Positions 5,072-63,471 of a DNA stretch of 64,000 nucleotides are shown piece by piece; position 1 is the stretch's first letter, and each line of letters begins with the position of its first letter. Under the pieces are notes generated by a model. The model had not been told where the DNA came from. It searched no databases and was given only the letters and a program-made list of their open reading frames with translations. Location of the stretch: positions 1-64,000 of IMG/VR virus record IMGVR_UViG_3300045391_000992. The stretch is one strand, 5' to 3'. A program made the position numbers and the translations under genes. The stretch is from a virus.

Positions 5072-6135
5072 TCCCCAGATACGAAGAAGGAAATCGATTG
5101 ATCGGGGTTCGAGAGGATCGCCGCCTTGTCGGTGAATGACAACGAACCGAGTTCGAGGCCCTGCAACAATCGAGCCGGCGGCACACGGATCTCAACGTCG
5201 TGATGCTTCTGCCCTGACGGCGGAGCGATCACGTCTTCGACCACGCCGCGCGACGATTTGGAGTAGAAGCGGATCTTGTTGTCGGCAATAGTCACCTTGA
5301 GCTTGGTGCTCTCGACCGCGTCGGCCGAAATGATCACGCTGCGCTCGAGCATCATCGGGAACTTCTTCGCGAACTGCTTGTCGCTCGCGTCGATCGTTGA
5401 CTTCGCCTCCTTCTTGATATCGCGAGCTTGATCGACGAAGTCGCGGTTCTTGCGATCCTGATCCTCGAGCGCGCCCCAAAGCACGACACCGTTGCACTTC
5501 GCGAGCAGTATCTTCTCGTCAATCGCGAGTTCGATTTCCGTCGCCCCCTCACTGATGCGGATCAGCTGATCGACCACGGCGGTCGGCACCACGACACGAT
5601 CCCAGCCGATCTCACGACTGAGCTTGACCTGGCAATGCGTCAACGTCAGTCGGTCATAACTGAACATGTGCAGCGTCTTGCCATCAGGTATCATGGTGAT
5701 GCCCTTGAAGGCCGACTCCGATGTCTCCGAACCGAGCGATCGTTTACACGCCTTGAGCGCGATCAGGAACTTCGGCACGTCAACAATGCCGATGCCCTCG
5801 GTCGGAAACTTGGGCATCGTGAAATTGAATTTGTCCGCGGCCATCGTCAGGAGCTTGAACTTCGAGGCCCCGGCCTTGACCGTGACGCCCTTGTCGGTCT
5901 CCTCGAATACACACTCAGGGGCCGCCGACGATGCGAGCAAGGGGAACAGCGTCGCCTGCACCGCGCCGACGAAGTCACATGGGAATGGCACGGCAAGTGC
6001 CAGCCCGCCGTTGAACGCCATCACGCGTTTGCCCGTGAACCAGAACGTCTTCATAACCTCATTGCTGTTCGTCACCGAACGCGCGGGGTCGACGTTCCGC
6101 AGGGCTTCAATCAAGATCTTCCTGTCCATATGCAT
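5068..6135 (-). CDS. sliding clamp (DnaN/beta-clamp-like)
   Basis: Start moved to ATG 6133-6135 (MHMDRKILIEAL) with AAAGGA 4 nt upstream. About 355 aa with a repeated beta-rich pattern. Sits between polymerase and clamp-loader genes. Call rests on position and pattern. Confidence 0.5.
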   Translation of the reverse strand: MHMDRKILIEALRNVDPARSVTNSNEVMKTFWFTGKRVMAFNGGLALAVPFPCDFVGAVQATLFPLLASSAAPECVFEETDKGVTVKAGASKFKLLTMAADKFNFTMPKFPTEGIGIVDVPKFLIALKACKRSLGSETSESAFKGITMIPDGKTLHMFSYDRLTLTHCQVKLSREIGWDRVVVPTAVVDQLIRISEGATEIELAIDEKILLAKCNGVVLWGALEDQDRKNRDFVDQARDIKKEAKSTIDASDKQFAKKFPMMLERSVIISADAVESTKLKVTIADNKIRFYSKSSRGVVEDVIAPPSGQKHHDVEIRVPPARLLQGLELGSLSFTDKAAILSNPDQSISFFVSGD

Positions 6136-7321
6136 TGATCCTTTCGAGTTGTTGCATGGCGCGTTTAGAAATGAAGGTGTCGTTGTCCCAGTCGACGCGG
6201 GCCGACCGTGGCTTGTAGTTGAGGTCAACGGCCCCCTGCCTCACGAATTTCTCGAGGTCGGCTTCGTCGCGATCGATGACTTCCCAGTAGGAGATCAGTC
6301 GGTTCCACGATTGGGCGTCGTTGAGTATCATGGAGAACTGGCCATTATGCATCATGGTGGCCATGATCACTCGCATATGCGGCCAGAGCTTCGGCGGCTT
6401 GAGGTTCGACATGTCCGGCAGGGGATCGAGTAGACCATTGCTCGTGTGTCGATAGTCCTCGCTGAACGGCAGTATCTTGTAGTGATCGCCGAACTCCACG
6501 AAGTATTTAAGGCAGGCTTTGCGACGTGCGGCGCTCTTGTAGCGGGCTTCCTCTTGCGTGATACCCACATGCTTAAGCCATCGCTGCACCCACGCCAGAT
6601 CCTCGGGGTTCAGGCCTTCGTACTGACGACGCGCCGATGACCAAGCCTTCTGCGTGCGGCCCGACGTGATGATCCGCATTGGCAGTTTGGAGTAGTCGGG
6701 CACGTGGTCGTGATCGATGCCGGGGACATAAATCAGACCGAACCCTGCGGCGAGCGACCATGTCGTGGAGTCGACAGTGAACCACGGGTATCGCCACAGC
6801 AAGCTGATATTCGTGATGCCAAAGCCGTGGGTCTTGACGAAGGGTCGGCCCTTACTGTCCGTGATCACAGAGAACGCGCGATCGAGCCACTCACGCTGTT
6901 CAATCGCAGTCGTGTCCTTGATCGTCGCGATCCCGACATAGGGTTCGCCGTCGCGGACATATCGCTCGAGCCAATCGAATGACTCGCCCTGATGGAAGAT
7001 CGGGATCGGTGTACAGCCTAGCGACTTGAGCGTCTGCTGATTGTCGTATGACTTCTTCGCTGACTGCTCGACCTGCTTCTGGGTTCGTTTCGAGCCGAAC
7101 ACACCCGGGATCTCGTCCATCGTCGCGTAACACTCGAGCAGGTGCTCGTGGCGTTTGATGAACTTCGCGTAGCCCTTGACGTTGAGCACGCGCTTGACCT
7201 TGTCGCGTATCGCAGGGTCGAGGTCGGGCACGTCCTTGCGCGACCACGCGCTAAACACACCGGAGTCAAGGAACAGATTGACCTTGTTCTTCGGCGGCTC
7301 CATTCGTTCGCGCTTGCTCAT
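6107..7321 (-). CDS. dpdA: DpdA-like guanine transglycosylase (TGT superfamily) for inserting 7-deazaguanine into DNA
   Basis: Start at ATG 7319-7321, in an ATGA overlap with the folE stop. FLDSGVFSAW matches the TGT DSGGFQ-type motif, and a second Asp motif is FTVDSTTW. Adjacent to folE. Confidence 0.6.
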   Translation of the reverse strand: MSKRERMEPPKNKVNLFLDSGVFSAWSRKDVPDLDPAIRDKVKRVLNVKGYAKFIKRHEHLLECYATMDEIPGVFGSKRTQKQVEQSAKKSYDNQQTLKSLGCTPIPIFHQGESFDWLERYVRDGEPYVGIATIKDTTAIEQREWLDRAFSVITDSKGRPFVKTHGFGITNISLLWRYPWFTVDSTTWSLAAGFGLIYVPGIDHDHVPDYSKLPMRIITSGRTQKAWSSARRQYEGLNPEDLAWVQRWLKHVGITQEEARYKSAARRKACLKYFVEFGDHYKILPFSEDYRHTSNGLLDPLPDMSNLKPPKLWPHMRVIMATMMHNGQFSMILNDAQSWNRLISYWEVIDRDEADLEKFVRQGAVDLNYKPRSARVDWDNDTFISKRAMQQLERINAYGQEDLD

Positions 7322-7899
7322 CCGATACCCACCCCCTTGGCTTGATCGATCATTTTGTAGAACTCCGCGCGGGCGTCGCTCTCGGTCTTGAGCTTGCCCC
7401 GCAGTGCCGCGGTCGTCGTCACAGTGCCCGGGCGATTGATGCCGCGGGACTCCATGCACATATGCCGGGCCTGCAACACGACGCCGACACCGCGCGGCTT
7501 TAGCACCTTGTCGATCGTGTCGGCGACTTGCGTCGTGATGCGCTCTTGCACGCTGAGCCGTCGCGCGAATGCATCGACCAGTCTCGGCAATTTCGAGAGA
7601 CCGACGATCTTGCCGCTAGGGATGTAGCCGACATGAGCCACGCCGAAGAACGGAGCGAGGTGGTGCTCGCACGTCGAGTAAAACGGGATCGCGCCGACGA
7701 AGACCATCTCGTCATAGGAGTCAGCACCGTCCTTGAATGTTTTGAGGAGTGCCGCGGTATCAACGCTGTACCCCGCCGTCCATTCTTGAAGGGCTGCGCA
7801 GTAACGCTTGGGCGTGTCGTGCAAGCCCTCGCGATTGGGGTCTGGCTCGACCTGCTCGATCAGGGAGCGAACAGCGTCAATCGGGTGCATTTTGGGCAT
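7318..7899 (-). CDS. folE: GTP cyclohydrolase I
   Basis: REGLHDTPKR, STCEHHLAPF, VQERIT and HMCMESRG motifs; 193 aa. Confidence 0.9.
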   Translation of the reverse strand: MPKMHPIDAVRSLIEQVEPDPNREGLHDTPKRYCAALQEWTAGYSVDTAALLKTFKDGADSYDEMVFVGAIPFYSTCEHHLAPFFGVAHVGYIPSGKIVGLSKLPRLVDAFARRLSVQERITTQVADTIDKVLKPRGVGVVLQARHMCMESRGINRPGTVTTTAALRGKLKTESDARAEFYKMIDQAKGVGIG

Positions 7900-21903: not shown

Positions 21904-22154
21904 CACTTCCACTCCAGCGCTTTGATTTCTGCGCTCGTGTAGAGCTTGAGATTTGTCATCTTGCCCCCGGGTCGCATGTCGATTATTTCGACGCGCGACA
22001 CCTCGCCCCGATCGATGCGAGCCGCCCACGCCAGCGTCTCCGTTTGCGCAGACGATATGCCGCGGTGCGACGTTTCAACGAGCATCACGCCGAACGGCGC
22101 TTTACCCGGGTGCTTCGAGCCTGCGAAGCCTCGTACCCGAAAATCCCAATTCAT
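21903..22154 (-). CDS. hypothetical protein (83 aa)
   Basis: Start at MNWDFRVRG, in an ATGA overlap with the queE stop. Confidence 0.5.
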   Translation of the reverse strand: MNWDFRVRGFAGSKHPGKAPFGVMLVETSHRGISSAQTETLAWAARIDRGEVSRVEIIDMRPGGKMTNLKLYTSAEIKALEWK

Positions 22155-22867
22155 GGCACATCCACCAGCTTGTGCACCTGCAGCGAAAGGCGATACCCGT
22201 GCTCGAGGCACAGGTCGCGCGCCCACTCCCTGTTGCGCTGATTGGGGCCATACTCCTGCTCATCCATCGGGCTGATCCAAATCTGCACGACCGGATGTTT
22301 GGGATAGAACACGACGGAGTCCCGACCCTGATGCTGCGTTGACTTCGTCGGCATGCCCCATTTATCGCCCTCGCCATGCCTGACGACGTATTTCCACGCG
22401 CCGACGAGTCGCTCCAAGTAGGGATGAACCTTCGGCGTCTTGGGACTGCACACGATCAGGTTGCCCGCGATCGTGCGCAACGGATCGAATACAGTGTGCA
22501 GTTCGGGCAGCGTGACGGTGCCCGCAGTTTCGATCGAGCACGAGATACCGAACTCGTTCATGCGTCGCACGAAAGGCACAATGTTCTGCAGGAGCGGTTC
22601 GCCGCCCGTGATCACGACGAGCGAACATTGCTTCCGTCGCGCTATCACGAGCACGTCGTCGACCAAGGCGTGGAGCTCGATCTCCTCGCCCGTCTCAAAC
22701 TCCGTATCACAGAAGTAGCAGCGCAGGTTACACTTCGCGAGGCGCACGAATATGGCGGGGCGGCCGGAGTCCGGTCCCTCCCCCTGCAGTGTGTAGAACA
22801 CTTCGTTCACCAGCAGGTGTGTCCCGCTCTCGTTGAACGATCCGCTCACCTTGTTCTGACCGAACAT
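22151..22867 (-). CDS. queE: 7-carboxy-7-deazaguanine synthase (radical SAM)
   Basis: FYTLQGEGPDSGRPAIFVRLAKCNLRCYFCDT and ITGGEPLL. Start at ATG 22865-22867, with AAGGAAG 6 nt upstream. Confidence 0.85.
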   Translation of the reverse strand: MFGQNKVSGSFNESGTHLLVNEVFYTLQGEGPDSGRPAIFVRLAKCNLRCYFCDTEFETGEEIELHALVDDVLVIARRKQCSLVVITGGEPLLQNIVPFVRRMNEFGISCSIETAGTVTLPELHTVFDPLRTIAGNLIVCSPKTPKVHPYLERLVGAWKYVVRHGEGDKWGMPTKSTQHQGRDSVVFYPKHPVVQIWISPMDEQEYGPNQRNREWARDLCLEHGYRLSLQVHKLVDVP

Positions 22868-23351
22868 GTTTGTCTTCCTTTCTGATGATAAGTTTGAGTA
22901 AGCCATTAGCGGCGTACCCGGGGAACTCCCGATTGATCAGCCCGGGAATGCGGTGTAGCTCGTTCATGAATGACATGTAAGACGGAGCCACCCGCCGCAT
23001 CATCATGTCACGCTCGAGCAGGACCAGCCCGACCTTGAACAGGGCGCGCTGGGCAGTCTTTGAACCGACCTGTGAGATGTAGGCTCTCACACGTGGCAGT
23101 TTGTTTTTGAATGAGTCGTATTGTCGCGCGTGCATAAGGTCGGTAGTGGGGACCGGACGACCCCCTCTATCGCGCCCATGCTCCGCGATCATAACTAACT
23201 CTTCTGGTGCATCAGGGAATGCTACCGCACGATCGGCGCTGCCCGGGCCCAGTTGCAGGAGAACGGTTATGTGGTTCCGTAACTCCTGCAACTCTTGTGA
23301 CGTGAGCCCTTTGGTCGCGCGGATCGCTTTTGCGAGACTGTCTGTCGTCAT
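22728..23351 (-). CDS. hypothetical protein (207 aa); last ~46 codons overlap queE out of frame
   Basis: ORF track. The C-terminal tail is R/P-rich. Confidence 0.5.
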   Translation of the reverse strand: MTTDSLAKAIRATKGLTSQELQELRNHITVLLQLGPGSADRAVAFPDAPEELVMIAEHGRDRGGRPVPTTDLMHARQYDSFKNKLPRVRAYISQVGSKTAQRALFKVGLVLLERDMMMRRVAPSYMSFMNELHRIPGLINREFPGYAANGLLKLIIRKEDKHVRSEQGERIVQRERDTPAGERSVLHTAGGGTGLRPPRHIRAPREV

Positions 23352-50451: not shown

Positions 50452-51930
50452 TTAGTTCGCCCGGCCGGCGCCCTTGTATGCGTTCTGCAGACGCTGGTCG
50501 CGCGCAGCGATCGCAGCATCGGCCTTCGCACGAGCATCGCCCGAGTCGTGGGTCGGGGTCGAGAACGCAGCGACCGTGGCCGCAAGGCCCGAGGTCTGCG
50601 CATCGGTCGGCTTGACGCCCGCGGTCAGCGTGTCGAATGACACCTTGACCTCGGCATCGCCCCAACCCTTCGCCGCATCGCCGAGCTTGGCATCGACGAC
50701 CTGGCGCATGATCTCCGTGTCGGTCTTGCTGTCCACGACGAGCTTGTCGCCGAGGATCGAGCGAGCCTTGCCGGCGATCACGGCACGATCCTTGACCAGC
50801 TGGTCGAGCTTGGCCGGCGTGATCTTGGCGTCCTCGACTTGCTTCTTCAGGGTCGCGATCTCCGCGTCCTTCGTGGCCATCTCGGTCACGTGCTTCGCAG
50901 AGTCCTCCGACATCTTCTTCTTGTTGGTCTCGTTCTCCGTGTTCGCCTTGGTGAAAGCGTCCTCAGCAGTCTTGACACGCTGGGCGGCGGTGTCGAGAGC
51001 CTTCTGGATGATCTGGGCAGCCTGATCATTCATGACTTCGACGCTGATGCCGTCAACGGACATGATCTTCGACATATTCACTTCCTTCTGGTGTTGCCCG
51101 TCAGCGACGGTGCTGGTGGTGGTCGTTTCGAGGAGCGACAGCATCGAGTCGACGGCGGCGAGAATGTCGCCATCACCCTTTGCGATCGCATTCGCCTTGC
51201 AAGCCCGGAGACCGGCAAGGGATACTACCCCGTCCGCGCTTGCGAACGGGTACTCTTTATCTGCGAGGCATCGCGGAAGCGATCCCTCGGCAAAGCCGGC
51301 ATAGTCTTTCTTGTCGACCTTGCCGTCCATGATGGCCCGCAGACCATCGGCATGCGCCGCGACGATGACCTTCTTTCCGGTGCCATCGCCGATACGCAAT
51401 TGTCCGCCACCACGTGCAGCGTCCACGACTGCAATGTGGTTGGCTCGAATGTTCTTCTGCATGGCATCGTACTGGGTGCCATCGGGTGCAGTGCCCGGGG
51501 AGAAATCGATCTCACACTCGTATCCGACTGAGAGCTCAGCCTTCCCGTCCTTGAACTTCTTGATCGTGCCGCCGTCCATGACGACCATCGGCACTCGAAT
51601 GAAGTCGCCATCGCGAACGACCTCGTCCCCGGCCTGACCCTTCGCATACTGCGACCAGTTGTCGGCCGTAACATTCACAGGCGGGTGGTCGTCAGTGATC
51701 GGCTTGTGAGGGAACGACTGCAGCGACGATGACTTGAACACCTCGTCCTGCGATCGATAAACTTTCATCACCTTCTTGGCGTCCTGCCCGGTCATGCCGA
51801 GCTCGGAGCCGTAGTAGAGTTGAATACCGGTGCGCGCGACACGGGGCATTGCCACCATGTAGCCATCAGTCGTGTACCGTACCTTGGCGGCGTCGTCGAG
51901 ATCGTATCGATCGCAAAGCAGCATTGTCAT
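50452..51930 (-). CDS. capsid scaffolding/prohead core protein (DUF2213-like)
   Basis: N-terminus VRYTTDGYMVAMPRVARTGIQLY..ELSVGY..ANHIAVV, followed by a long coiled coil. Start at ATG 51928-51930 after GGAG. Confidence 0.55.
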   Translation of the reverse strand: MTMLLCDRYDLDDAAKVRYTTDGYMVAMPRVARTGIQLYYGSELGMTGQDAKKVMKVYRSQDEVFKSSSLQSFPHKPITDDHPPVNVTADNWSQYAKGQAGDEVVRDGDFIRVPMVVMDGGTIKKFKDGKAELSVGYECEIDFSPGTAPDGTQYDAMQKNIRANHIAVVDAARGGGQLRIGDGTGKKVIVAAHADGLRAIMDGKVDKKDYAGFAEGSLPRCLADKEYPFASADGVVSLAGLRACKANAIAKGDGDILAAVDSMLSLLETTTTSTVADGQHQKEVNMSKIMSVDGISVEVMNDQAAQIIQKALDTAAQRVKTAEDAFTKANTENETNKKKMSEDSAKHVTEMATKDAEIATLKKQVEDAKITPAKLDQLVKDRAVIAGKARSILGDKLVVDSKTDTEIMRQVVDAKLGDAAKGWGDAEVKVSFDTLTAGVKPTDAQTSGLAATVAAFSTPTHDSGDARAKADAAIAARDQRLQNAYKGAGRAN

Positions 51931-52039
51931 GGTCTCCAATATCCTAACGTTGAAGCACGCGCCCAACGCGGTTTGTGTTACCCAACATAGCGGCCGCTAT
52001 GCGGGCTTTGTGAACGTCGCTAAACTTACGCCCTGCGGT

Positions 52040-52768
52040 TCATGGACGCCAGTACCTCGCGATCCATTTGGTCTGGCCCTGTGCTTCAACGTCCCACGGC
52101 TTCTGCGAGCCATGGAAGAAAATGATGCGCGTCGCCGCCCTGAGCTCGCCCATGATGCGGTTCTGCAATGGGTAGGAGCTCACGAGCGGATAACCCAAGC
52201 CGACGCTCCCCGGCCGAGTGATCAGGTGCATGGACAGCCACGCCTGATCAGAACCCTTGAACCCCGCAGCGGCTGCAACCTTGGGTGACGTGGTCGGATC
52301 GAAACCCGACCATATGTGTTGCAGCGTGCCCGCCGTAAACATTTGCAGTGAGCCATTGAACACGGTCTGTCCGTCCTGACGCCTCAAGTGCCAGCCGACA
52401 AACTCGCCCTCAGTTTTGACGAGCTCGCGCAAGTCGCCGGTGATCAAGGTATCGAGATCGATCGACATGATCCGGTCGCCCTTGTCGATCCCGATATCCT
52501 TCTGCGTGTCACGATCGTAAAGCTTCAAGCGTCGATAGCACGACGGCAGATGCTTGCCCGAGGCGTTCGGCAAATCGTTTGCGTCACGCCACAGGGGCGC
52601 AGTCTCGCACTCGTGTATGCCCTCCTGCCGATCGGTCACGCAGACGATGCGATGCGGCGTTGCCTGCAGATTGCGTCGGAGCATCAACGCCATGATGTCC
52701 ACGTACTCGGGCAGGTAGTGACGTTTGGTGCCCGGCTGCTCCCACTTCCACAACACGATCTGCAACAT
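52040..52768 (-). CDS. nucleotide-sugar-dependent glycosyltransferase-like protein
   Basis: Start at MLQIVLWKWEQPG. Also carries ..IVCVTD.. and ..IMSIDLDTLI. TGATG overlap with the GT2 stop. Confidence 0.45.
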   Translation of the reverse strand: MLQIVLWKWEQPGTKRHYLPEYVDIMALMLRRNLQATPHRIVCVTDRQEGIHECETAPLWRDANDLPNASGKHLPSCYRRLKLYDRDTQKDIGIDKGDRIMSIDLDTLITGDLRELVKTEGEFVGWHLRRQDGQTVFNGSLQMFTAGTLQHIWSGFDPTTSPKVAAAAGFKGSDQAWLSMHLITRPGSVGLGYPLVSSYPLQNRIMGELRAATRIIFFHGSQKPWDVEAQGQTKWIARYWRP

Positions 52769-53496
52769 CAGACCACCACCTGATAATACTCGAACCGAAT
52801 ATGGTTCTTGGCCTTGTAGGCCGGGCCCTTCGCCTTCGCCTCGATCTTCGGGAACTGCGATCGATGGAACGGCGACTCCTTGCGACCCCAGTCCTTGGTG
52901 TTCGCGTCGGAGATTTGATCCGAACCCCAACGCGTCAGCTTGAAGTCGTGAGTCGGCAGCTCCTTCAAGCCCGCTCTCATGCACTTGCGGAAGTTGCCAT
53001 CGGAGCCATACGCCCCCGCGAAGTCTTCGTCGTACCCGCCCATCGTCCAGAAGTCATCCTTCCGCATGATGTAGGAGTTCGCGTGCGGATGGTTCTGCTT
53101 CCCGTCCCAATCGACGCGGTCGGGCATGTAGTAACAGCCCTGCACTGCCTTGTGCGAAACGAAGTCAAGCATCTTGCCGACCTCGAGTCGCGAGAGCATG
53201 TGATCCATGTCCGTCAGGAGCGCCCACTCCGTGTTGACGTGCATCATCGCGAGGTTGCGCGCGCCGTCCTGGTTCCACGGAATGTTCGGCACGATGCGGA
53301 ACAGTCTGATCTGGAACCCGACGTTGCCATACTCCCTGATGACAGGCTCAGCCGGATTGCGCGGCGACCCATCGTCCACGACGATCGCCTGCAACACCAT
53401 ATTCTCGGCTGGCCGGAACATGCGCCATTCGTGCAGCTGCAGACGCAGCATCTTCGGGTTCTCGTAGTAGGGCATCACAATCGTTACTGGAGCCAT
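52768..53496 (-). CDS. family-2 glycosyltransferase
   Basis: VTIVMPYYEN, IVVDDGS, DGARNLA and LLTDMDH motifs. Confidence 0.8.
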   Translation of the reverse strand: MAPVTIVMPYYENPKMLRLQLHEWRMFRPAENMVLQAIVVDDGSPRNPAEPVIREYGNVGFQIRLFRIVPNIPWNQDGARNLAMMHVNTEWALLTDMDHMLSRLEVGKMLDFVSHKAVQGCYYMPDRVDWDGKQNHPHANSYIMRKDDFWTMGGYDEDFAGAYGSDGNFRKCMRAGLKELPTHDFKLTRWGSDQISDANTKDWGRKESPFHRSQFPKIEAKAKGPAYKAKNHIRFEYYQVVV

Positions 53497-53502
53497 GGCG
53501 CG

Positions 53503-54192
53503 CTATCCTTGGAAGTATCGGGTCTTGAGTTCAGGCCGGTCGGGCTTGTAGCCAAGGCTCGAATTCCCATCACCGAAAGTGTGATCGACAAGGCAGGGAA
53601 TGCGGTACATGATCTCCCGGCCTTTTGATGCGAGCACCTGAGCGACTAGGTGATCGACGTTCTTATCCCACCGTGGATCTTGCAAGTAGGCATTCAACAA
53701 ACTCGAGTGCAAGATCAGCGCTGCCCACGAGCGATGATAGACTTGGCACTGAGCTCCCCACGTGCCCCGCCCGAGGTTCAATTGATAGAAGCCCTGCACG
53801 AGCGGCAGCCCGTACTTCTTCTCGAGAACCTTGCTCACGCGGATCGGGCAATAGAGTGAGATGGCTCCGACCCTATCGTCCTTGGACCAGTGTGCAAGGT
53901 CCCACGTCAATGCCGCCGCTGCGTCGCGTGCCCATTGGATATCATCCTCGCAGATCATGATCCAATCGAACGTGGTTTGATCGAACAACTGCCGCAGCGC
54001 GTGAATGTAGTTGCGGAAGTTGCCGCGTTTGATCGCGTTTTGCTCGGTGTGAACACCGTCAGCAACGCATGCCTCGGAGCCGGGCTCCGCGAACACGACC
54101 GCAGTCTGGAAGCCCGCAGCCTTGAACGACTCGACCGAACGGACGAGCGTGGGGCGCTCACGTGGCGCCGTGATGATCCCCACTGCAATCAT
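53503..54192 (-). CDS. GT-A-fold glycosyltransferase-like protein
   Basis: Start at MIAVGIITAPRERP, in an ATGA overlap. MICEDDI is a DxD-type motif. Confidence 0.5.
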   Translation of the reverse strand: MIAVGIITAPRERPTLVRSVESFKAAGFQTAVVFAEPGSEACVADGVHTEQNAIKRGNFRNYIHALRQLFDQTTFDWIMICEDDIQWARDAAAALTWDLAHWSKDDRVGAISLYCPIRVSKVLEKKYGLPLVQGFYQLNLGRGTWGAQCQVYHRSWAALILHSSLLNAYLQDPRWDKNVDHLVAQVLASKGREIMYRIPCLVDHTFGDGNSSLGYKPDRPELKTRYFQG

Positions 54193-54857
54193 GGCAGTTG
54201 CGTCCAGCAGTACGCGACTGACATCTTGTAGTCGCGATGCGTGCTCTTGATGACGGGCCGCAGCTTGTCGCCGAAGCGTTCGTCGAATGCACGATTGACG
54301 CCCGGCCACAAGTAATCATCGCCTGCGATCACACCGCGCGGCTTCATCTTCGGCAACCACGCGTCAAGGTCGGCTTTCACTGCCTCATAAGAGTGGTCGC
54401 CGTCGAGCATCAGGAAGTCGACGGACTGGTCTGCGAACTTCGTCGCGGCCTCGACCGAAGTCATCCGCATCGGTGTGATCTGATGACGCACCGGCCGAAT
54501 GTTATCGATGAAAGTCTCGTAGACCGGCTTCTTCAAATCGGTGAAGTAGGTCGTGTCGCGCAGATCGGGGCCGCCATCGATCCACGGGTCCACGCAACAG
54601 AACTCCACGTTCATGCCCGTATTGATCAGCTCGACCGCCATCAGGGACGCCGAGCGACCAAGCCACGAACCGACTTCGACGAACACCATACCGTGCTTGG
54701 CCTTCGCAGCCATCGCAGTGTAGAGATCGCCGAACGATGCCCACCCGGGCAGACTCTCATAGAAATGTTTCACTGGCGCGTTTCCGTTAGCATACCCCAG
54801 ATTGACGATGCCACGAGTCGGGGCTTGCTCGTGCCAATCACGACGACAACGATCCAA
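54189..54857 (-). CDS. class I SAM-dependent methyltransferase (Methyltransf_24-like)
   Basis: FVEVGSWLGRSA (motif I) and DFLMLDGDHSYE. Confidence 0.7.
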   Translation of the reverse strand: MDRCRRDWHEQAPTRGIVNLGYANGNAPVKHFYESLPGWASFGDLYTAMAAKAKHGMVFVEVGSWLGRSASLMAVELINTGMNVEFCCVDPWIDGGPDLRDTTYFTDLKKPVYETFIDNIRPVRHQITPMRMTSVEAATKFADQSVDFLMLDGDHSYEAVKADLDAWLPKMKPRGVIAGDDYLWPGVNRAFDERFGDKLRPVIKSTHRDYKMSVAYCWTQLP

Positions 54858-54864
54858 CGCTGCT

Positions 54865-56028
54865 TCACGCGTCTTCGAGAGATCGAAGCGCTGCGCGGGT
54901 ATCCCTCGCGAAACGAGCGTCGTCCGCAGGAACGAACACGCAACGACAGTGTGGGTGCGCGGGTATCAAGGAGCGCGCAGTGTCGATGCTGTATGGTCCC
55001 TCCTCGGAGATCGCTTCGCAGACTGGGCATACGTCGTCATCTCCTGCGGTACGCACATTGACATTCTCGCCGAGTCGACGAGCAACGTTGAGTTCAGCAG
55101 CTCGAATACGTCCAATGGTTCGAGCGGAAGGGGTCTGCTTACGTGATACCCGGGACCCCGGACCTGTTCTGCGCGCATCCTTAGTCTTCTTCGAAGTCGC
55201 CTTCTGCGGTTTCGCCTGCGCATCTGTGACCACCTTTGCCTGCGCTCGCGACTCAGGGAGCAGCCCCACACTCTTGAGGCCTGAGGCCTCGTAGATGTCG
55301 AGTGAGGCCTCGGCGTGTGCTCTGATCACGAGCAGTTCAATCATCGCATTGGCCCGGACCACCCCGACCTTCTCGATGATGTTCAGTATCTGCCGCGTGA
55401 TCTGCATGGGCTTCGACCCATTGAGCAAACCATTCGACACGGCGCGAACGGCCTGCTGACTGACGGCTTCTATGATCCCCTCGAGTTCGACACGCGCCAG
55501 CGATTGCAGTGCCGCTTCACGATGCCCCGACAAGGGGTTGGTGACTTGGGTCTTGGCCTGCGCCTGCCCGAACTTCACACCGGCACCATAGGCTTCGTTC
55601 AAGAAAGGTCGCATGAACGACCCATCCTTCTGCAGCACTGCGTTCTGCAATGCCATGTCGAACCAACGCTGGAACACGTCGATCTTCGAACCGGCGCCCG
55701 TGATGGTAGGCGAGTTCAGGTTTGTCAGGCCGCCATTCTTGATCGACAGAAGGTCTTGTTTGTTGACCATCTGTTTCGTGAGCTCGCGCAATTGGTTCCA
55801 GCGTTGACGCAACGCCATGCGGAACTTCGAGCGGAGCTTGCCCGTGTTCGTCGGGTCGACGAGCACGACGCGTTTGGCATCGTTCGCCTGACAACACGCG
55901 CAGCGCGCGGAGTCGGTGAACGTGTGGCCGTGATACTTCAACATGAACTGACGCCTGTTCTCGTTCGCCGTCTTCAGCCGAAGACGAGCTTGAGGTACAA
56001 AGAAGCGGCCGCCGTGCCCAGCAACCAT
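54865..56028 (-). CDS. head morphogenesis protein (SPP1 gp7 / Mu F-like)
   Basis: C-terminus VCPVCEAISEEGPYSIDTARSLIPAHPHCRCVFVP. Start at ATG 56026-56028 after GGGGAG. Confidence 0.75.
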   Translation of the reverse strand: MVAGHGGRFFVPQARLRLKTANENRRQFMLKYHGHTFTDSARCACCQANDAKRVVLVDPTNTGKLRSKFRMALRQRWNQLRELTKQMVNKQDLLSIKNGGLTNLNSPTITGAGSKIDVFQRWFDMALQNAVLQKDGSFMRPFLNEAYGAGVKFGQAQAKTQVTNPLSGHREAALQSLARVELEGIIEAVSQQAVRAVSNGLLNGSKPMQITRQILNIIEKVGVVRANAMIELLVIRAHAEASLDIYEASGLKSVGLLPESRAQAKVVTDAQAKPQKATSKKTKDARRTGPGSRVSRKQTPSARTIGRIRAAELNVARRLGENVNVRTAGDDDVCPVCEAISEEGPYSIDTARSLIPAHPHCRCVFVPADDARFARDTRAALRSLEDA

Positions 56029-56143
56029 CGCCACTCCCCGGTAACGAGAGCGGTAAGCAACGTGATCGGTATCGCCGCAATCGAGACGATCATCAGCAGC
56101 GTGAAAAACGCCGTCAGCGCCTGATCGGCGGGTGACCCCTGCT

Positions 56144-56446
56144 TCACTTGCATGGCTGCGCCTTGCCCAAGTCATATGCCTCGCGCATCGCATCGTACCG
56201 CGCGGAGCCTTGACACATCTGCTTCCATCGACGCTCATAGTATTGGTCGCCAAACTTCTCGTCACTCGGCTCGAACCGATCGCAATGTGACTTGCCACAC
56301 TTGATCAGGTTTGGCAGAGCTAGGTCTGCGCCATGAGCTTGAACGTAGAACATCAAACTCACGAACGCGACCAAGACCCCGAACATGGCGAATATGCGCC
56401 CGCCGCGCGGCCCCGCCTGGTTTGCGTTATAAGTGTCGAGTAGCAT
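56144..56446 (-). CDS. small membrane-anchored Cys-containing protein (100 aa)
   Basis: TM segment IFAMFGVLVAFVSLMFYV. 1-nt overlap with the upstream stop. Confidence 0.5.
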   Translation of the reverse strand: MLLDTYNANQAGPRGGRIFAMFGVLVAFVSLMFYVQAHGADLALPNLIKCGKSHCDRFEPSDEKFGDQYYERRWKQMCQGSARYDAMREAYDLGKAQPCK

Positions 56447-57588
56447 CAGATGAGCTCCAGCATAACGAGTGTGTTCTCATATGCAGTCCGATCAATCTGC
56501 TTGATCGACTGCGGTTCGATTTGTTGCACGTCGTCACGACGCACGATTATTTCAGGCTCAGGCTTCACAGCCTCGGGCACAATCGAGGGCGGGTCCCATG
56601 TCAGCGCGGGAGCCACGACCTCAGGCACTTGCTCGAACGCGTGTGGTGTCAGATCAGCAAGCGGTTCGGTTTTGATGACACCCGACGCACCGCCCGACAC
56701 GATGCCGACTGCAATCGTGACGACCTGACCCTGCGCTACAGCATCACGCCCCTTGCGATAACCAACGCCAACACCCGCAACGCGACGCGCAACGATCTCA
56801 CCAGTCGCCTTGCCTGCGATGACAGACCACGTCCCCGTGATCGTGTCGCCGTTTGCAGTCGCGTCTCCTGCCTCGCCACCCGTCGCCGTGCCTGCTTCAA
56901 TCGACAAGCCGACTTCGATCGTCTCGCCCTCGACCGTTGCTCCTGCAGTCGCGGTGCCTGCGATCAGACTGGAGTCGACCGCGATCGTGTCGCCTTGCGG
57001 GTTTGCATCACCCGTTGCAACGCCTTCGAGAACCTCGAGCACAGTGGCGAGTACATCGCCCCCTACATTCGCGTCGCCTGAGGCCTGCCCGTCAATGACG
57101 GCGACTGTGCTCGTGAGGACGGCCCCGTTCGCGGCCCCGTCCCCGATCGCGCCCCCTGCGACGATCGACGTGGCAGTCGTAAGCACTGCCCCCGCGATCG
57201 ACGCGCCACCCGTTGCGGCCCCTGTTGCGATCGACGTCGCAACAGTAAGGGTCGCTCCGCTTGCATTCGCAGCGCCCGATGCTGACCCCGCGATAATCGA
57301 GGTCGCGTCCGTGATCGTCGTACCCGACGCATTGGCGGCGCCTGATGCAGCGCCCGCGGCCAGCGACGTTGTGACTACGTTGGTCGTCCCGCTGACGTTC
57401 GCCGTGCCAGTCGCAGCGCCCGCGATCACGGAGCTTGCAACCGTGAGGGTCGCGCCCGGTTCGGTGATCGCGGTCGTCCCTGCGATCAGGGACGCAGTGA
57501 CTGTGAGTGTTACGCCCGACGCATTGCCGTTGACCTCAGCGAACGTGCCAAGCGGTATTACGCCAAGCGATTCTCCGCCTAGTATCAC
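56446..57588 (-). CDS. fibre-like protein built from about eleven 22-aa repeats
   Basis: Probable GTG start. Repeat units read G-x-T-L-T-V-x-S-S-(L/V)-I-A-G-x-A-x-G-x-A-N-x-S. Confidence 0.55.
   Translation of the reverse strand: MILGGESLGVIPLGTFAEVNGNASGVTLTVTASLIAGTTAITEPGATLTVASSVIAGAATGTANVSGTTNVVTTSLAAGAASGAANASGTTITDATSIIAGSASGAANASGATLTVATSIATGAATGGASIAGAVLTTATSIVAGGAIGDGAANGAVLTSTVAVIDGQASGDANVGGDVLATVLEVLEGVATGDANPQGDTIAVDSSLIAGTATAGATVEGETIEVGLSIEAGTATGGEAGDATANGDTITGTWSVIAGKATGEIVARRVAGVGVGYRKGRDAVAQGQVVTIAVGIVSGGASGVIKTEPLADLTPHAFEQVPEVVAPALTWDPPSIVPEAVKPEPEIIVRRDDVQQIEPQSIKQIDRTAYENTLVMLELI
56809..57519 (-). repeat. 66-nt in-frame tandem repeats (about 11 units, diverged)
   Basis: Periodic protein units, for example GATLTVASSVIAGAATGTANVS and GTTITDATSIIAGSASGAANAS. 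Confidence 0.7.
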
Positions 57589-59530: not shown

Positions 59531-61777
59531 TTAATCCTCAGCTGGGGTTTCAGTGATAGTCTTGACACGACCATGCTCGTCGTGCTCGACCTGCTTCGTG
59601 ACCTTGCCGCTCTTCACATGGACATCCACGTGAACGACTGGGGCCGGAACGACAATCGGAGCCGGCGGTGTGGTAACTACGTCAGTCGCTAGCTCCTTCG
59701 GCGCGTTGAAGAAGCCATCATCGGGCTTGATCTCCTCGAACTCCTCGGGTCCGAGCATGATCGGTCCGGTGTAGGCCGGGAGCGTCAAGGGATTGATCGC
59801 ACCCGCGTCGGCCGAGATCGACACGTGCGGTGTGTAGTCGTCATAGTCCCAAGTGCCGCCCGTGCGGTCGAGGATCGAGCAGTGCCGCCACGACAGGTCG
59901 GAGTTCGCGAACGCGAGCACCAGATACTTGCCGAACTGTTCGTTGACGCGCGGACCACCAGCCTTGACCGTGAGGTTGCCGTTCTGGTCGTTGCCCCAAG
60001 TGTCTTCGCCAACCTTGAGCCAATCGACCGGGGTCTTCGAATAACACACCGTCACATGCATGTCGGCGCCCATGACGTTCTGCACACCCGCGTCCTTGTA
60101 GAACTTTGCAATGTCGCGCCAGTTCAGCACGGGGCGGTTGATGTACAGTGTCCGCGGCGTGCTCGCGTCGATCAGCTGTGCGTCGCGAATACGGGTCGCC
60201 ATGGCTTCGATCGCAGCATCCTGCCCCACTACCTTCTTCTTGGGAGGCGGCACGGACTTGCTGGGAGACGGCACAGGCGGTTCGTTCGCGTTCGCCGGGG
60301 CAGGAGGCGCATTCGGATCGGGAATTGCTCGTGCCATCGCCTCGGGATCGTTCGGATCGGGAGCCTGCCCGGTCTGCGGATCGATCATGGGCGTCGCCGC
60401 AGGAGCAGCAGGCGTCTCACGCTCATTGATGTCCGTACCGTACTCTTCAATGATCTGCTCGATGCCCGGGTAGAAGCCAGACTCGATCAGCTGGTTCTCG
60501 CGTGCCTTCTGCAGAACCATCGGGTCCATGAGGCCAGCAGTGACGTCGGCAGTCATAACGTTTGCCTGCTGCACGGCGATAGCGGCCTTGGCGGCATCGT
60601 CCATCTGCCATAGCGGGTTCCAATTGTAGAACATGCCATCGGGCGCTTTGCCGAAGGCCGAGATCTGGAGCAGTGTGTCGAGCGGGGAGATCGTCGGTGC
60701 GATCTCGATCTTCTGCTCGGTGCTGACGCGGTCGTAGTAATTGCGGGTATCGGAGTCACCGGTCGCATTCATGCCCTTGGGCGCCTGACCAAGGAAGCGT
60801 GTCGCGGGAATGTCGGCCGCGCCGCACACTACAAGGAAGAACTCCTGCATCACCTCGGGCATGCCGGTGAAGATCTGATTGACGCGCGTCCATTCCTCTT
60901 CCTTGTCGATCAACAGCACGCTGTAAATCGACTTCATCACACCCGCCATGGCGAAGCGAGTCTTCAGTCGGTTCTCGTACTCGGTGCTGCTGATGCGCTC
61001 GGAGAGTTCGGGGATCTTGACGATATCGACCTTGGCTTCTTGAATGAGCGAGGTCATCGACTGCATGACGGTGCCGGTCGCGATCACGGCATCAGCGACG
61101 ATCTGCAACACCGAGTCACCCCAGCCCATCGACTGATTGATGTCCGGAACCTCGGCCCCGACGAAGCGGCAGATGCGCGATGGGTGAATACGAACCACGG
61201 TCTGCCCCGGCACCGAACGATCGTAGTATGAGGGGGTGCCGAAGTAGGGCGACGTGATGTCCCAATCGATTTGACCGGCGCTGATCTCGTAGCGATTGAC
61301 GACATGCACGAACTTGAGACAGCCTTCACCGAGCTTGTCCATGTCGAGCGGCTCTTCCGGCTTGCCCTGATCAACGCCGAGCACGAGCGCAGCGCCTCCG
61401 TACAGACGGGCACGCTGCAGGACCGACATGACCTTGCGCTGAATGCCCAGCGACTCCTCGAGATCTGAGATCTTCGCGATGTCCTCGGAGTCGGCCTGCC
61501 ATGTGCGCCACTCGCGTGTCGCGTCGAATGACGGGATGTCGATCACCTTACGGCTGATCCAGTCACCGCGGTATGCGGCCTCGGCCTGCGCTCGATCGAG
61601 CGCATTGAACGCAAACTGCGTCGCGATCGACTTGTCCTTGCCCGTGCCCATACCCGTCACGAGATTGACGAGCGAGTCTTGCGCGCGGAACAACGGATGC
61701 ACGTTGCCACCACTGACCCGCTGAACCGCAGGAGCTGCGGGCTTCGTGTCCGCAGTCCGCTTTGCCGTCTTGCCCAT
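59531..61777 (-). CDS. portal protein (DUF1073 type) fused to a C-terminal 2H-phosphoesterase-like domain
   Basis: Portal body with LVTGMGTGKDK. Pro/Ala linker at aa ~455-520. C-terminal domain with HVTV and HVSI motifs 77 aa apart. Confidence 0.75.
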   Translation of the reverse strand: MGKTAKRTADTKPAAPAVQRVSGGNVHPLFRAQDSLVNLVTGMGTGKDKSIATQFAFNALDRAQAEAAYRGDWISRKVIDIPSFDATREWRTWQADSEDIAKISDLEESLGIQRKVMSVLQRARLYGGAALVLGVDQGKPEEPLDMDKLGEGCLKFVHVVNRYEISAGQIDWDITSPYFGTPSYYDRSVPGQTVVRIHPSRICRFVGAEVPDINQSMGWGDSVLQIVADAVIATGTVMQSMTSLIQEAKVDIVKIPELSERISSTEYENRLKTRFAMAGVMKSIYSVLLIDKEEEWTRVNQIFTGMPEVMQEFFLVVCGAADIPATRFLGQAPKGMNATGDSDTRNYYDRVSTEQKIEIAPTISPLDTLLQISAFGKAPDGMFYNWNPLWQMDDAAKAAIAVQQANVMTADVTAGLMDPMVLQKARENQLIESGFYPGIEQIIEEYGTDINERETPAAPAATPMIDPQTGQAPDPNDPEAMARAIPDPNAPPAPANANEPPVPSPSKSVPPPKKKVVGQDAAIEAMATRIRDAQLIDASTPRTLYINRPVLNWRDIAKFYKDAGVQNVMGADMHVTVCYSKTPVDWLKVGEDTWGNDQNGNLTVKAGGPRVNEQFGKYLVLAFANSDLSWRHCSILDRTGGTWDYDDYTPHVSISADAGAINPLTLPAYTGPIMLGPEEFEEIKPDDGFFNAPKELATDVVTTPPAPIVVPAPVVHVDVHVKSGKVTKQVEHDEHGRVKTITETPAED

Positions 61778-63271
61778 TTAGAGTGCTCCTACCCAGCCCA
61801 TGCTGGCGTCATATTTGTAAGTCTTGGCGACACACTTCGCGAACGCACCGGCGGTGCTGTCCACCTGATCCTTGTACTTGCCGTTCGGCCAGACTTCATG
61901 CTCGTCAATGAAGTCCTGAGTCCACGGCGCAGCTAGCACGATCACGTGACCAGCCTGTTGCTGCGCGGCGTAGGGCTCGGCCCTGATCTCCTTCGACCCC
62001 GTGACCTTGTCGGCCTTGGCGGGGAAGCCAGCGAGCATCGCGATCGAACGTTCCGCAGACTCCTTACCACCGGAGCCGGGTTCCTGCTCGAGCCAGATCT
62101 CAACACGGCCCCAATCGGCTTGATCGTTCTTCGCGGTCTGCAGAATGGCCTGCTCACGCTCGAGGCTCGACCACTGACCGCGCGTGATGTTCGCCACGAA
62201 GAACGTGCCATTCTTCAGCCAGAGCATGAGCGTGCCCGACGTGTAGGCGCCACCACCTGCAGTGCCGGCCTTGTCCCAGTAACGAACCGCCTTCTTGACT
62301 TCCTCGCGAGTCGGCAGCACGTCCGATCGCTTGAACTTCACGACCGGGAACATGCCCCCGCCCGACACGACCGGCATCTGTTGATACAGCGATGCCCACG
62401 ACGACGCAGTGTATGATTCCTTGCGTTCCATCAAGAAGTCATACGACTTGTACTCAGGGAACAATGGCTCGTCCACGTCGCGAGGATCGATCGCGTCGTT
62501 CTTCCAGCCCTCGGGCGTGTCGCAGTATAGCGCAGGGAACTTCAGCACCCGGGTGTTCGGGAACTTCTGCAACCAGCGTCCGGCCGGGTCGTCAACATGC
62601 CAACGCGTCAGCGTCATGATGAACCCAGCATCGTCAGTGAAGCGGCTGAGGAAGTCGTCCATCAGCCAGTTCCACGTCTTGTCGCGCACCACCTTGGACT
62701 GCGCTTCTTCACGGCCCTTGATCGGATCGTCCACGACACCGAGGCCGGCCGTCTTACCAGTAACCTGTCCGCGAACGGTCGTGTTCCTGAAGTAGCCCCT
62801 GTGCCCCGGGAACTCAATGAAGCTCGAGTTCTTCGCATACTCGGTCTCGTGATCGAACGCCATGCGCATGTCGGGGAATACACGCCCGAACTTCTCGCGG
62901 TCACCCCATATACGCTGCAGGCTCGAGTTCGCGACGTCGCCAAGGTCGTTCGAGAACGAACCGTAGATCGTCTTCAGCGACGGGCGACGCCCCATTGCCC
63001 ATGCCATCGCATCGATCAGGCCGCGCGACTTACCATGCTGCGGCGGCGCTTCAATCACAAGCTTGGGCCGCTGCCCCTGCTCCATGCGCTGGAAGAAGTC
63101 TTGAAACTCCTGCGACATGTAGGCGACCCACCACCCCTTGACGATAGTCGGATCGATGTACTGCCGAAAGGCCCAGAGCGATTGACGCGCTTCATAGGCC
63201 CAGTAATCTTCCATCAGGTCGAGATCTTCCTCGCTGATGGGTGTGAATTCTTTCGCCTTGCGGTGCTTCAT
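61778..63271 (-). CDS. terL: terminase large subunit
   Basis: Start at MKHRKAKEF, in an ATGA overlap. Walker A-like PPQHGKS, LGVVDDP, and nuclease-domain YWDKAGTAGGGAYTSG. Confidence 0.8.
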   Translation of the reverse strand: MKHRKAKEFTPISEEDLDLMEDYWAYEARQSLWAFRQYIDPTIVKGWWVAYMSQEFQDFFQRMEQGQRPKLVIEAPPQHGKSRGLIDAMAWAMGRRPSLKTIYGSFSNDLGDVANSSLQRIWGDREKFGRVFPDMRMAFDHETEYAKNSSFIEFPGHRGYFRNTTVRGQVTGKTAGLGVVDDPIKGREEAQSKVVRDKTWNWLMDDFLSRFTDDAGFIMTLTRWHVDDPAGRWLQKFPNTRVLKFPALYCDTPEGWKNDAIDPRDVDEPLFPEYKSYDFLMERKESYTASSWASLYQQMPVVSGGGMFPVVKFKRSDVLPTREEVKKAVRYWDKAGTAGGGAYTSGTLMLWLKNGTFFVANITRGQWSSLEREQAILQTAKNDQADWGRVEIWLEQEPGSGGKESAERSIAMLAGFPAKADKVTGSKEIRAEPYAAQQQAGHVIVLAAPWTQDFIDEHEVWPNGKYKDQVDSTAGAFAKCVAKTYKYDASMGWVGAL

Positions 63272-63471
63272 GCGTCGCCCCGATTGACCCGAGCATACAG
63301 CTGCTCGAGGGTTTCGTTTTCGTCGTGGGCCAGAACGCAATCGTCGCACGGCTTAGCAGACGTGCGATACTTGTTGCGCGTGCATCCCTTGCCCACACCA
63401 CGACATGCCCATAGCTTGAGCTTGCCATCCGTGTCGCGGTACAAGATCGTTTGAATGTTCAGTGTGGTCAT
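63268..63471 (-). CDS. small Cys-containing protein (67 aa)
   Basis: ORF track. Coupled to terL. Confidence 0.45.
   Translation of the reverse strand: MTTLNIQTILYRDTDGKLKLWACRGVGKGCTRNKYRTSAKPCDDCVLAHDENETLEQLYARVNRGDA

Follow-up and report, generated by a model that had tools for sequence, protein, structure and literature searches.

The window analysed here, a stretch of 64,000 nucleotides from virus record IMGVR_UViG_3300045391_000992, contains a gene for a phage portal protein that carries an additional enzymatic domain at its C-terminus. The gene lies at 59531..61777 on the minus strand and encodes 748 residues, from an ATG start to a stop codon at 59531-59533. Four parts can be distinguished in the product: a portal body (residues 1-455, 60413..61777 (-)), a linker (residues 456-535, 60173..60412 (-)), a domain of the Acb1 family of 2H phosphodiesterases (residues 542-686, 59720..60154 (-)) and a C-terminal tail module (residues 690-748, 59534..59710 (-)). 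An initial annotation, made from the letters of the window, had described a DUF1073-type portal tethered to a 'LigT/Acb1-like' 2H phosphoesterase. Our analysis verifies the open reading frame (ORF), the coordinates of its two histidine motifs (HVTV and HVSI) and the spacing of 77 residues between the histidines. The three strings that it associated with 2H enzymes are likewise found where it placed them (LYINRP at residues 544-549, GKYLVLAF at 616-623 and YTPHVSIS at 648-655).

The portal body is confirmed by Pfam family Phage_portal_3 (PF06381, the former DUF1073), which matches residues 64-408 (nucleotides 60554-61588 (-)) with 333.5 bits against a cut-off of 33.8 (E=1.6e-99) and covers profile positions 2-355 of 357. 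In PHROGs the protein matches the portal family phrog_146 (E=2.7e-134), whose profile reaches into part of the C-terminal domain. We placed the C-terminal limit of the body at a crown segment (...ESGFYPGIEQIIEEYG) that is conserved in the alignment with relatives. Identity to the portals of cultured phages is about 40%, and at most about 41%.

Identity and active site of the C-terminal domain

The C-terminal domain is matched by the Acb1 model of Pfam (PF23474) with 100.1 bits against a gathering score of 27 (E=1.2e-28), over profile positions 1-140 of 144. It also matches phrog_755, a 2H family whose legacy label is 'RNA ligase'. The first catalytic motif is HVTV at residues 574-577 (60047..60058 (-)), in which H574 and T576 are equivalent to H44 and T46 of the Acb1 of phage FBB1; the second is HVSI at residues 651-654 (59816..59827 (-)), in which H651 and S653 take the place of the second HxT of Acb1. 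By itself the HxS/T motif is weak evidence, because two more such strings occur in the same 748-residue ORF (HPSR at 198 and HCSI at 632). The profile evidence lies far beyond chance, and we regard it as decisive for the assignment of the domain.

Structure prediction, which the initial annotation had proposed as a check, gives a similar outcome. The AlphaFold2 model of residues 521-748, built on 20 homologues, has a compact 2H fold with a predicted local distance difference test (pLDDT) score of about 90 in the core; the N-terminal helix and the lid region are modelled with low confidence. When searched against the PDB with Foldseek, the model finds FBB1 Acb1 first (7T26 and 7T27, the apo form and the form bound to cyclic GMP-AMP; E=5e-7, template modelling (TM) score 0.75, target-normalised), followed by a Burkholderia phage phosphodiesterase and then by E. 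coli LigT. In a search of predicted viral structures, Acb1-like or Acb1-named proteins come out on top, with TM scores up to 0.84; one of them is a 1134-residue protein that bears the UniProt name 'Anti-CBASS protein Acb1'. Sequence matches in the PDB are the C-terminal region of the portal gp3 of Pseudanabaena phage Pam3 (E=1e-31) and Acb1 7T26 (E=1.5e-6). Pfam, the matches to solved structures, the fold search and the aligned catalytic tetrad thus all support a 2H phosphoesterase at the C-terminus, and the earlier label 'LigT/Acb1-like' is sharpened to the Acb1 family.

The characterised Acb1 enzymes (T4 gp57B and that of Erwinia phage FBB1; 7T26/7T27; PF23474) share with the window domain the Pfam family, the compact 2H fold and the HxT/HxT(S) tetrad. 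One difference concerns the context: those enzymes are free-standing proteins of about 150 residues from T4-like myoviruses, whereas in the window Acb1 is the C-terminal domain of a portal in a siphovirus-like phage. In the published enzyme the catalytic tetrad consists of H44, T46, H113 and T115, and the ligand is contacted by Y12, W74, F107, W147 and E141 (Hobbs et al. 2022, PMC9117128). We compared the active sites by alignment with the FBB1 Acb1 protein from its GenBank genome; in its second half this protein is numbered about one position away from the published scheme, so that the ligand-contact equivalences should be read as putative. H574/T576 and H651/S653 align with the tetrad, with serine in place of the last threonine. 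W643 and Y645 align with the FBB1 aromatic pair Y106/Y108, a likely equivalence at the ligand contacts, and E681 aligns with FBB1 E142, presumably E141 of the paper.

Conservation of these positions was assessed in 167 relatives, which comprise the best 150 of an exhaustive HMMER search with the domain alone (1.84 billion cluster representatives) together with the matches of another search, taken as clusters at 50% identity. The first histidine and threonine are invariant (167 of 167 cluster representatives), the second histidine is present in 166 and the second serine or threonine also in 166; serine replaces the last threonine in 33 relatives. Y545, the putative equivalent of FBB1 Y12, is invariant, and a glutamate is found at the position of E681 in 126 of the 167. 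The complete tetrad in 165 of the 167 representatives points to selection for catalysis, so that the domain is an enzyme maintained by selection and no decayed relic.

LigT and other 2H phosphoesterases (5LDI and others) belong to the same superfamily fold and have the two HxT/S motifs, but here the fold match is weaker (TM about 0.5). It might be argued from this next-best match that the domain serves RNA repair and, as LigT or a cyclic phosphodiesterase would, opens the 2',3'-cyclic phosphates left on tRNAs after cleavage by host anticodon nucleases. Such chemistry is common among 2H enzymes, and the legacy label of phrog_755 points in the same direction. The Pfam match, however, is to Acb1 at 100 bits, and the LigT_PEase model does not match the window protein. 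Neither RNA ligase nor polynucleotide kinase families were found among about 60 window ORFs (including all minus-strand ORFs of at least 220 residues; the window is perhaps not the whole genome), and no tRNA genes were found in the window. Moreover, these versions of the 2H domain are never associated with RNA ligases (Iyer et al. 2017, PMC5512222). Consequently we consider a role in RNA end-healing quite improbable.

The domain is flanked on both sides by segments of a different nature. A linker rich in proline and alanine had been noted by the initial annotation, and it is indeed present: residues ~455-520 hold 19 Pro and 15 Ala per 70 residues, and this low-complexity part extends to about residue 520. 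Evidence on the linker as a whole comes from its composition, its low pLDDT and its partial conservation in the close clade. After the low-complexity part a short helix (AAIEAMATRIRDAQ) is predicted, at low confidence (model residues 2-12). The motif IDPxTG...PDPNDPEAMARA.PDPNAP (window 60250-60400 (-), residues ~460-510) is partly conserved among the closest relatives; the linker is thus no free-drifting spacer, and the motif could mark a site of processing or interaction. The tail module of ~58 residues (TTPPAPIVVPAPVVHVDVHVKSGKVTKQVEHDEHGRVKTITETPAED; VHVDVHVKSGKVTKQVEHDEHGRVKTITETPAED), which the initial annotation did not describe, is predicted to form a three-stranded beta unit (model residues 194-225, pLDDT about 74). 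Homologues of residues 690-748 are found in the closest relatives only, and the module has no Pfam or PHROG family and no structural match.

Distribution of the fusion and integrity of the reading frame

The HMMER search yielded 1,596 clusters at E<=0.001 and 66 at E<=1e-30. In 124 of the 167 relatives the N-terminal region is homologous to the portal body of the window protein, and five others with an N-terminal extension of at least 300 residues are also portals according to Pfam. Portal fusions are therefore seen in at least 129 of the 167 and involve three Pfam portal families, namely PF06381, PF04860 (Phage_portal) and PF06074 (Mu portal). The remaining relatives include some truncated fragments of portals, P0040 being one. 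Members of this Acb1 subfamily likewise occur N-terminal to prohead proteases (Peptidase_S78 and the XkdF-type S78_2; P0019, P0020, P0026 and P0049) and C-terminal to ChaB.

Similar arrangements are present in cultured phages. The GenBank phage collection holds 36 records with this Acb1 subfamily; in about 30 of them it lies within the portal gene, and in two roseophages (DSS3P8 and V10; KT870145.1 and MH015255.1) it is located inside a prohead protease gene. Carriers of the portal-Acb1 combination include the Rhizobium RHEph04/05/06 and RHph groups, the Pseudomonas phages phiPSA1, MR15 and psageK9, the Synechococcus phages Ssp-JY39 and Yong-M2-251, Pseudanabaena phage Pam3, Sinorhizobium phage HMSP1-Susan and Aminobacter phage Erebus. 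The domain is lacking altogether in some related portals, such as those of RHph_N28_2 and Kintu.

Pam3 provides the closest comparison with a solved virion. Its gp3 portal (8HDS; PMC9942802) is 38% identical to the window protein over residues 34-687, and both parts are homologous; Pam3 differs in being a cultured myovirus, and its portal is shorter (621 residues), with a shorter linker and without the tail module. The deposited 8HDS sequence of 621 residues includes the homologous C-terminal domain. The structure paper does not mention an Acb1-like domain (PMC9942802), and no 8HDS chain is among the Foldseek matches of our domain model.

Further domains have been added to the chain in part of the relatives: 25 fusions run at least 100 residues past Acb1. 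Of seven such extended proteins that were examined, an ADP-ribosyltransferase exoenzyme domain is present in three and a Zeta-toxin domain in one, and the other three have no further Pfam domain. P0070, P0152, P0039, P0038 and P0099 are longer relatives of the portal-Acb1-ADP-ribosyltransferase or portal-Acb1-Zeta-toxin type. One protein of 1188 residues has Acb1 followed by three ADP-ribosyltransferase repeats and no portal.

Toxin-type partners of this kind could also fit an offensive role, in which the domain is injected as a Usb1-like ribonuclease that cuts host RNA, comparable to the PBECR RNase domains on MuF and portal proteins. This is one of the two options given for 2H domains fused to portal or MuF proteins by Iyer et al. 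2017 (PMC5512222). The closest relatives in sequence and structure, however, are Acb1 enzymes that act on cyclic oligonucleotides, and the residues aligned with the Acb1 ligand-contact positions are partly conserved, which makes an RNase aimed at the host highly improbable.

Another matter is whether the two parts of the window protein truly form one chain. In two relatives they are split. A close relative (L007, GCA_013565735.1) is annotated with a portal of 463 residues and an Acb1 gene of 288 residues in the same frame; at its positions 3845-4120 a single TAA stands in place of the first Glu of EQIIEEYG, and homology continues through the 13 codons before the annotated TTG start. The TAA may have arisen lately as a nonsense mutation, or it may be a site of read-through. 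In Synechococcus phage Yong-M3-232 (L006, 158-2144) the portal and Acb1 ORFs overlap by 26 nucleotides in different frames, while the sister phage Ssp-JY40 has a single ORF; here either a sequencing error or a real decoupling may explain the frameshift. The two cases could suggest that the window ORF owes its length to a missed stop, a frameshift or a chimeric assembly that fused two ordinary genes.

Such an artefact is contradicted by independent data, and we rejected it. An identical protein of 748 residues is encoded on contigs of two further runs in the Logan assemblies (SRR33756995 and SRR33761162), which are ~99.5% identical to the window. Between 18 and 19 substitutions fall within the gene, all of them synonymous; for this reason the protein is evidently under purifying selection. 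The initial annotation had pointed to positions 60200-60420 as the place where a stop or frameshift might split the ORF; the ORF is continuous there in both assemblies, and since the frame through 60173-60412 is reproduced independently, the ORF is real. Furthermore, hundreds of homologues are fused in the same way, including those in complete genomes of cultured phages, and the Pam3 portal was deposited with the same C-terminal domain. The probability of an artefact is therefore practically negligible.

The 18-19 synonymous differences from these two metagenomic contigs (L002 and L003) sit exclusively at window positions 60479-61652 (portal-body codons 42-433). The linker, the Acb1 domain and the tail show no differences from the two contigs, and the flanking genes show few. 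Such clustering resembles a small patch of recombinant origin within the portal body.

Comparison with related phages, which had been suggested as a way to find the two parts as separate genes, also returned a genuine case. In another phage (L008) a stand-alone Acb1 of 182 residues is encoded between the MuF and DUF2213 protease/scaffold genes of the head module, whereas L007 and Yong-M3-232 represent interrupted single frames. A further variant of Acb1 (L009) has the protease/scaffold gene as its immediate downstream neighbour. All these cases thus have in common that Acb1 resides in the head-morphogenesis module, and covalent attachment is frequent but not obligatory. Given that the fusion recurs in at least 129 of 167 relatives and in three portal families, and that the domain is also joined to prohead proteases and found as stand-alone genes of the head module, we conclude that the linkage to the head is selected and not accidental.

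Genome setting of the portal gene

Almost all genes in the window are on the minus strand, and together they form a phage genome. The portal gene occupies the place expected for a portal: the gene for the large terminase subunit adjoins it upstream (61778..63349 (-); phrog_38, E=6.9e-70), and genes for a MuF-like protein, a protease/scaffold and a major head protein lie downstream. The head module consists of the terminase, portal-Acb1, a phrog_644 protein, two proteins without a family, the MuF-like head morphogenesis protein (54865..56298 (-); phrog_758, E=2.2e-11), a methyltransferase with glycosyltransferases, the head maturation protease/scaffold of the DUF2213 type (50452..51966 (-); phrog_530, E=1e-87; PF09979, E=1.2e-56), a head structural protein and the major head protein.

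Two regions of this module deserve a short description. Between the portal and MuF genes, an ORF of 380 residues (window 56446-57588 (-)) contains degenerate repeats rich in Ala, Gly and Thr (…GAATG…ANASG…) and has no family match; an indel of about 55 nucleotides at 57358-57413 separates the window from related contigs. The ORF thus encodes a variable repeat protein. Between the MuF-like and protease/scaffold genes (window 52040-54857 (-)) the module is interrupted by genes for a Methyltransf_24 protein, a glycosyltransferase of the GT2 type and another glycosyltransferase-like protein, together with an ORF without a family; this insert has a possible role in modification of the virion or the host surface.

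Tail and lysis genes encode a major tail protein with an immunoglobulin-like domain, a tape measure protein of 786 residues and an endolysin. A siphovirus-like morphology is likely, because no tail-sheath family was matched among the window ORFs scanned. The replication module comprises a polymerase, sliding clamp, clamp loader, DnaB-like helicase and primase. In addition, genes at 6107-7459, 7318-7899 and 22151-22906 (all minus strand) encode a ribosyltransferase of the TGT/DpdA-like type, the GTP cyclohydrolase FolE and a radical-SAM enzyme resembling QueE. These three probably belong to a 7-deazaguanine (queuosine-precursor) pathway of DNA modification, and the phage would then have a second anti-defence feature.

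Known systems and possible role in infection

The initial annotation knew of no described fusion between a portal and a 2H domain. This does not hold: 2H domains fused to MuF or portal domains were reported by Iyer et al. 2017 (PMC5512222) and Iyer et al. 2022 (PMC9503650), and the combination is abundant in databases and in cultured phages. The same authors predicted that such domains are packaged, injected and used to degrade immune (oligo)nucleotide signals (PMC5512222, PMC9503650), so that the delivery proposed for the window protein is essentially their published prediction. The window protein is therefore a further example of a known, widespread and computationally described architecture. 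As in the polyvalent, portal/MuF-linked class of effectors defined in these papers, an enzymatic domain related to biological conflict is found C-terminal to the portal, in a phage with terminase-portal packaging, and the predicted role is the same. The longer relatives with ADP-ribosyltransferase or Zeta-toxin extensions also fit this polyvalent pattern. The papers differ from our analysis in that they are comparative-genomic surveys without the window phage, and in that they predate or do not use the Acb1 assignment.

We consider it fairly probable that the protein is a portal-tethered nuclease on a flexible, disordered tether, directed at signals of the type used by antiphage signalling systems based on cyclic oligonucleotides (CBASS), coupled to head assembly; packaging is then probable and injection possible. 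Our analysis shows which domains are present, their fold, an intact active site, a strongly conserved tetrad and an architecture that recurs, while the substrate, the encapsidation, the cleavage and the injection are all steps that we infer. By homology with the characterised enzymes, the Acb1 domain would cleave 3'-5'-linked cyclic di- or trinucleotides that serve as CBASS-type signals, and perhaps related molecules. The reaction would be metal-independent, with His/Thr acid-base catalysis, and would pass through a 2',3'-cyclic phosphate intermediate. Removal of the signal would leave the abortive-infection effector of the host inactive.

Fusion to the portal has consequences for time and place. 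Whether or not the domain is delivered, the fusion puts the enzyme in the late operon for head morphogenesis, where it is made together with head proteins, above all the prohead protease/scaffold, that are reported as CBASS triggers. Portals have their C-termini (crown and barrel) facing the capsid interior, and therefore twelve extensions of ~293 residues would lie inside the head. The number of twelve follows from homology with Pam3 gp3, for which the dodecamer was solved, suggesting a dodecameric ring for the window portal as well. Every head would accordingly contain 12 copies of the enzyme (about 31 kDa each including the tether). If the head protease frees the domains, they could exit along with the DNA and be active in the next host ahead of any phage gene expression. 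The DUF2213 protease/scaffold at 50452..51966 is a candidate for releasing the C-terminal domain inside the prohead, and it falls into the broad class of prohead protease/scaffold proteins for which triggering of CBASS has been reported.

Packaged effectors offer a parallel. T4 virions carry the ADP-ribosyltransferase Alt, which enters the cell together with the DNA (background in Iyer et al.). Effectors are coupled to head components, and are presumed to reach the host along with the DNA, in T4 Alt and the MuF-fused toxins as well as in the window protein, but in the latter the effector is covalently part of the portal. Alt-like ADP-ribosyltransferase domains occur on the same portal-Acb1 chain in relatives, where they, or Zeta-toxin domains, are added at the same C-terminus. 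T4 Alt itself is a free protein; a capsid-targeting sequence serves for its packaging, and the prohead protease cleaves it.

Several observations weigh against this nuclease being packaged and delivered, or against its acting exactly as the known enzymes do. Identity to characterised Acb1 is only about 27%. The aromatic residue at position 74 of FBB1 is replaced by the aliphatic V611, and the lid tryptophan, kept by 73 of 138 relatives, is absent from the clade of the window protein (GFF, in a flexible segment of low confidence). Because of these two differences the substrate range may deviate in detail from that of T4 and FBB1 Acb1. As to delivery, the tail, long and probably non-contractile, is estimated at about 118 nm (786 residues of tape measure protein at 1.5 A per residue), whereas the maximal span of an extended tether of 65-85 residues would be about 25-30 nm. 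The cytoplasm is therefore out of reach for a domain that is still tethered, which would have to be released by proteolysis in order to be delivered; clipping during head maturation, which the initial annotation gave as an alternative, would thus be a prerequisite for injection and not a rival to it. The folded domain of ~17 kDa must also unfold to pass the channel of portal and tail. Free-standing homologues in head modules indicate that covalent attachment is not essential for function. In the solved model of the Pam3 virion portal the homologous domain is missing, which fits flexibility or removal and proves neither. Finally, no biochemical or virion-proteomic work on a portal-fused Acb1 was found in the searchable literature, where the comparative-genomic accounts by Iyer et al. 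were the only descriptions.

The main rival explanation is that Acb1 works late only, in the cytoplasm of the producing cell and as part of newly made, unassembled or assembling portals, where it destroys the CBASS signals that head assembly provokes; encapsidated copies would then serve no further purpose and never be delivered. The prohead protease or scaffold is reported to activate CBASS at a late stage (PMC12991175; 10.1101/2023.05.21.541620), and co-expression with head genes is the constant element, as seen in the stand-alone Acb1 of the head module and in the fusions of Acb1 with prohead proteases. The shortness of the tether relative to the tail and the missing domain in the Pam3 portal fit this explanation too. 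On the other hand, what sister chains have in this position are Alt-like ADP-ribosyltransferase and Zeta-toxin domains, which are classically pre-packaged effectors that act early. Co-expression, moreover, needs no covalent fusion, yet the fusion recurs across three portal families. A function restricted to the producing cell is thus a serious possibility, although on balance we think it unlikely.

Elements of both explanations are combined in a third, which we put forward tentatively and regard as doubtful: CBASS might sense head assembly itself, which would be the reason why Acb1 is joined to head-assembly proteins, and the nuclease might be an antidote tied to the trigger, made with the head protein that activates CBASS, while packaged copies freed by the protease provide a dose for the next cell. 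The antidote would then appear in fixed proportion to the cyclase-activating protease or procapsid, at the same time and place. This suggestion rests on the identity of the fusion partners, which are portals of three families and prohead proteases of two. Prohead proteases have been reported to activate CBASS cyclases by proteolysis (PMC12991175). The triggers tested were T4 gp21 and T1-like protease-scaffold fusions, and not DUF2213 proteins such as that of the window (PMC12991175; 10.1101/2023.05.21.541620).

For the window itself, the outcome is chiefly that one gene can be annotated with confidence: the portal of this uncultured siphovirus-like phage bears an anti-defence domain, and the phage has genes of a 7-deazaguanine pathway as well. 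To our knowledge, all characterised anti-CBASS enzymes and sponges are free proteins that are made after the onset of infection. If the portal-tethered nuclease is packaged and released, the virion would carry a pre-made eraser of cyclic-nucleotide alarms, and should the domain serve as an antidote and first dose, no earlier example would exist of a virion-delivered enzyme by which a second-messenger alarm of bacteria is erased. With hundreds of sequence clusters and about 30 records of cultured phages, the architecture is abundant, which makes the idea directly testable with existing phages such as Pam3, phiPSA1 and the RHEph04 group. If it is true, the timing of CBASS, and possibly that of type III CRISPR and related signalling defences, would have to be rethought.

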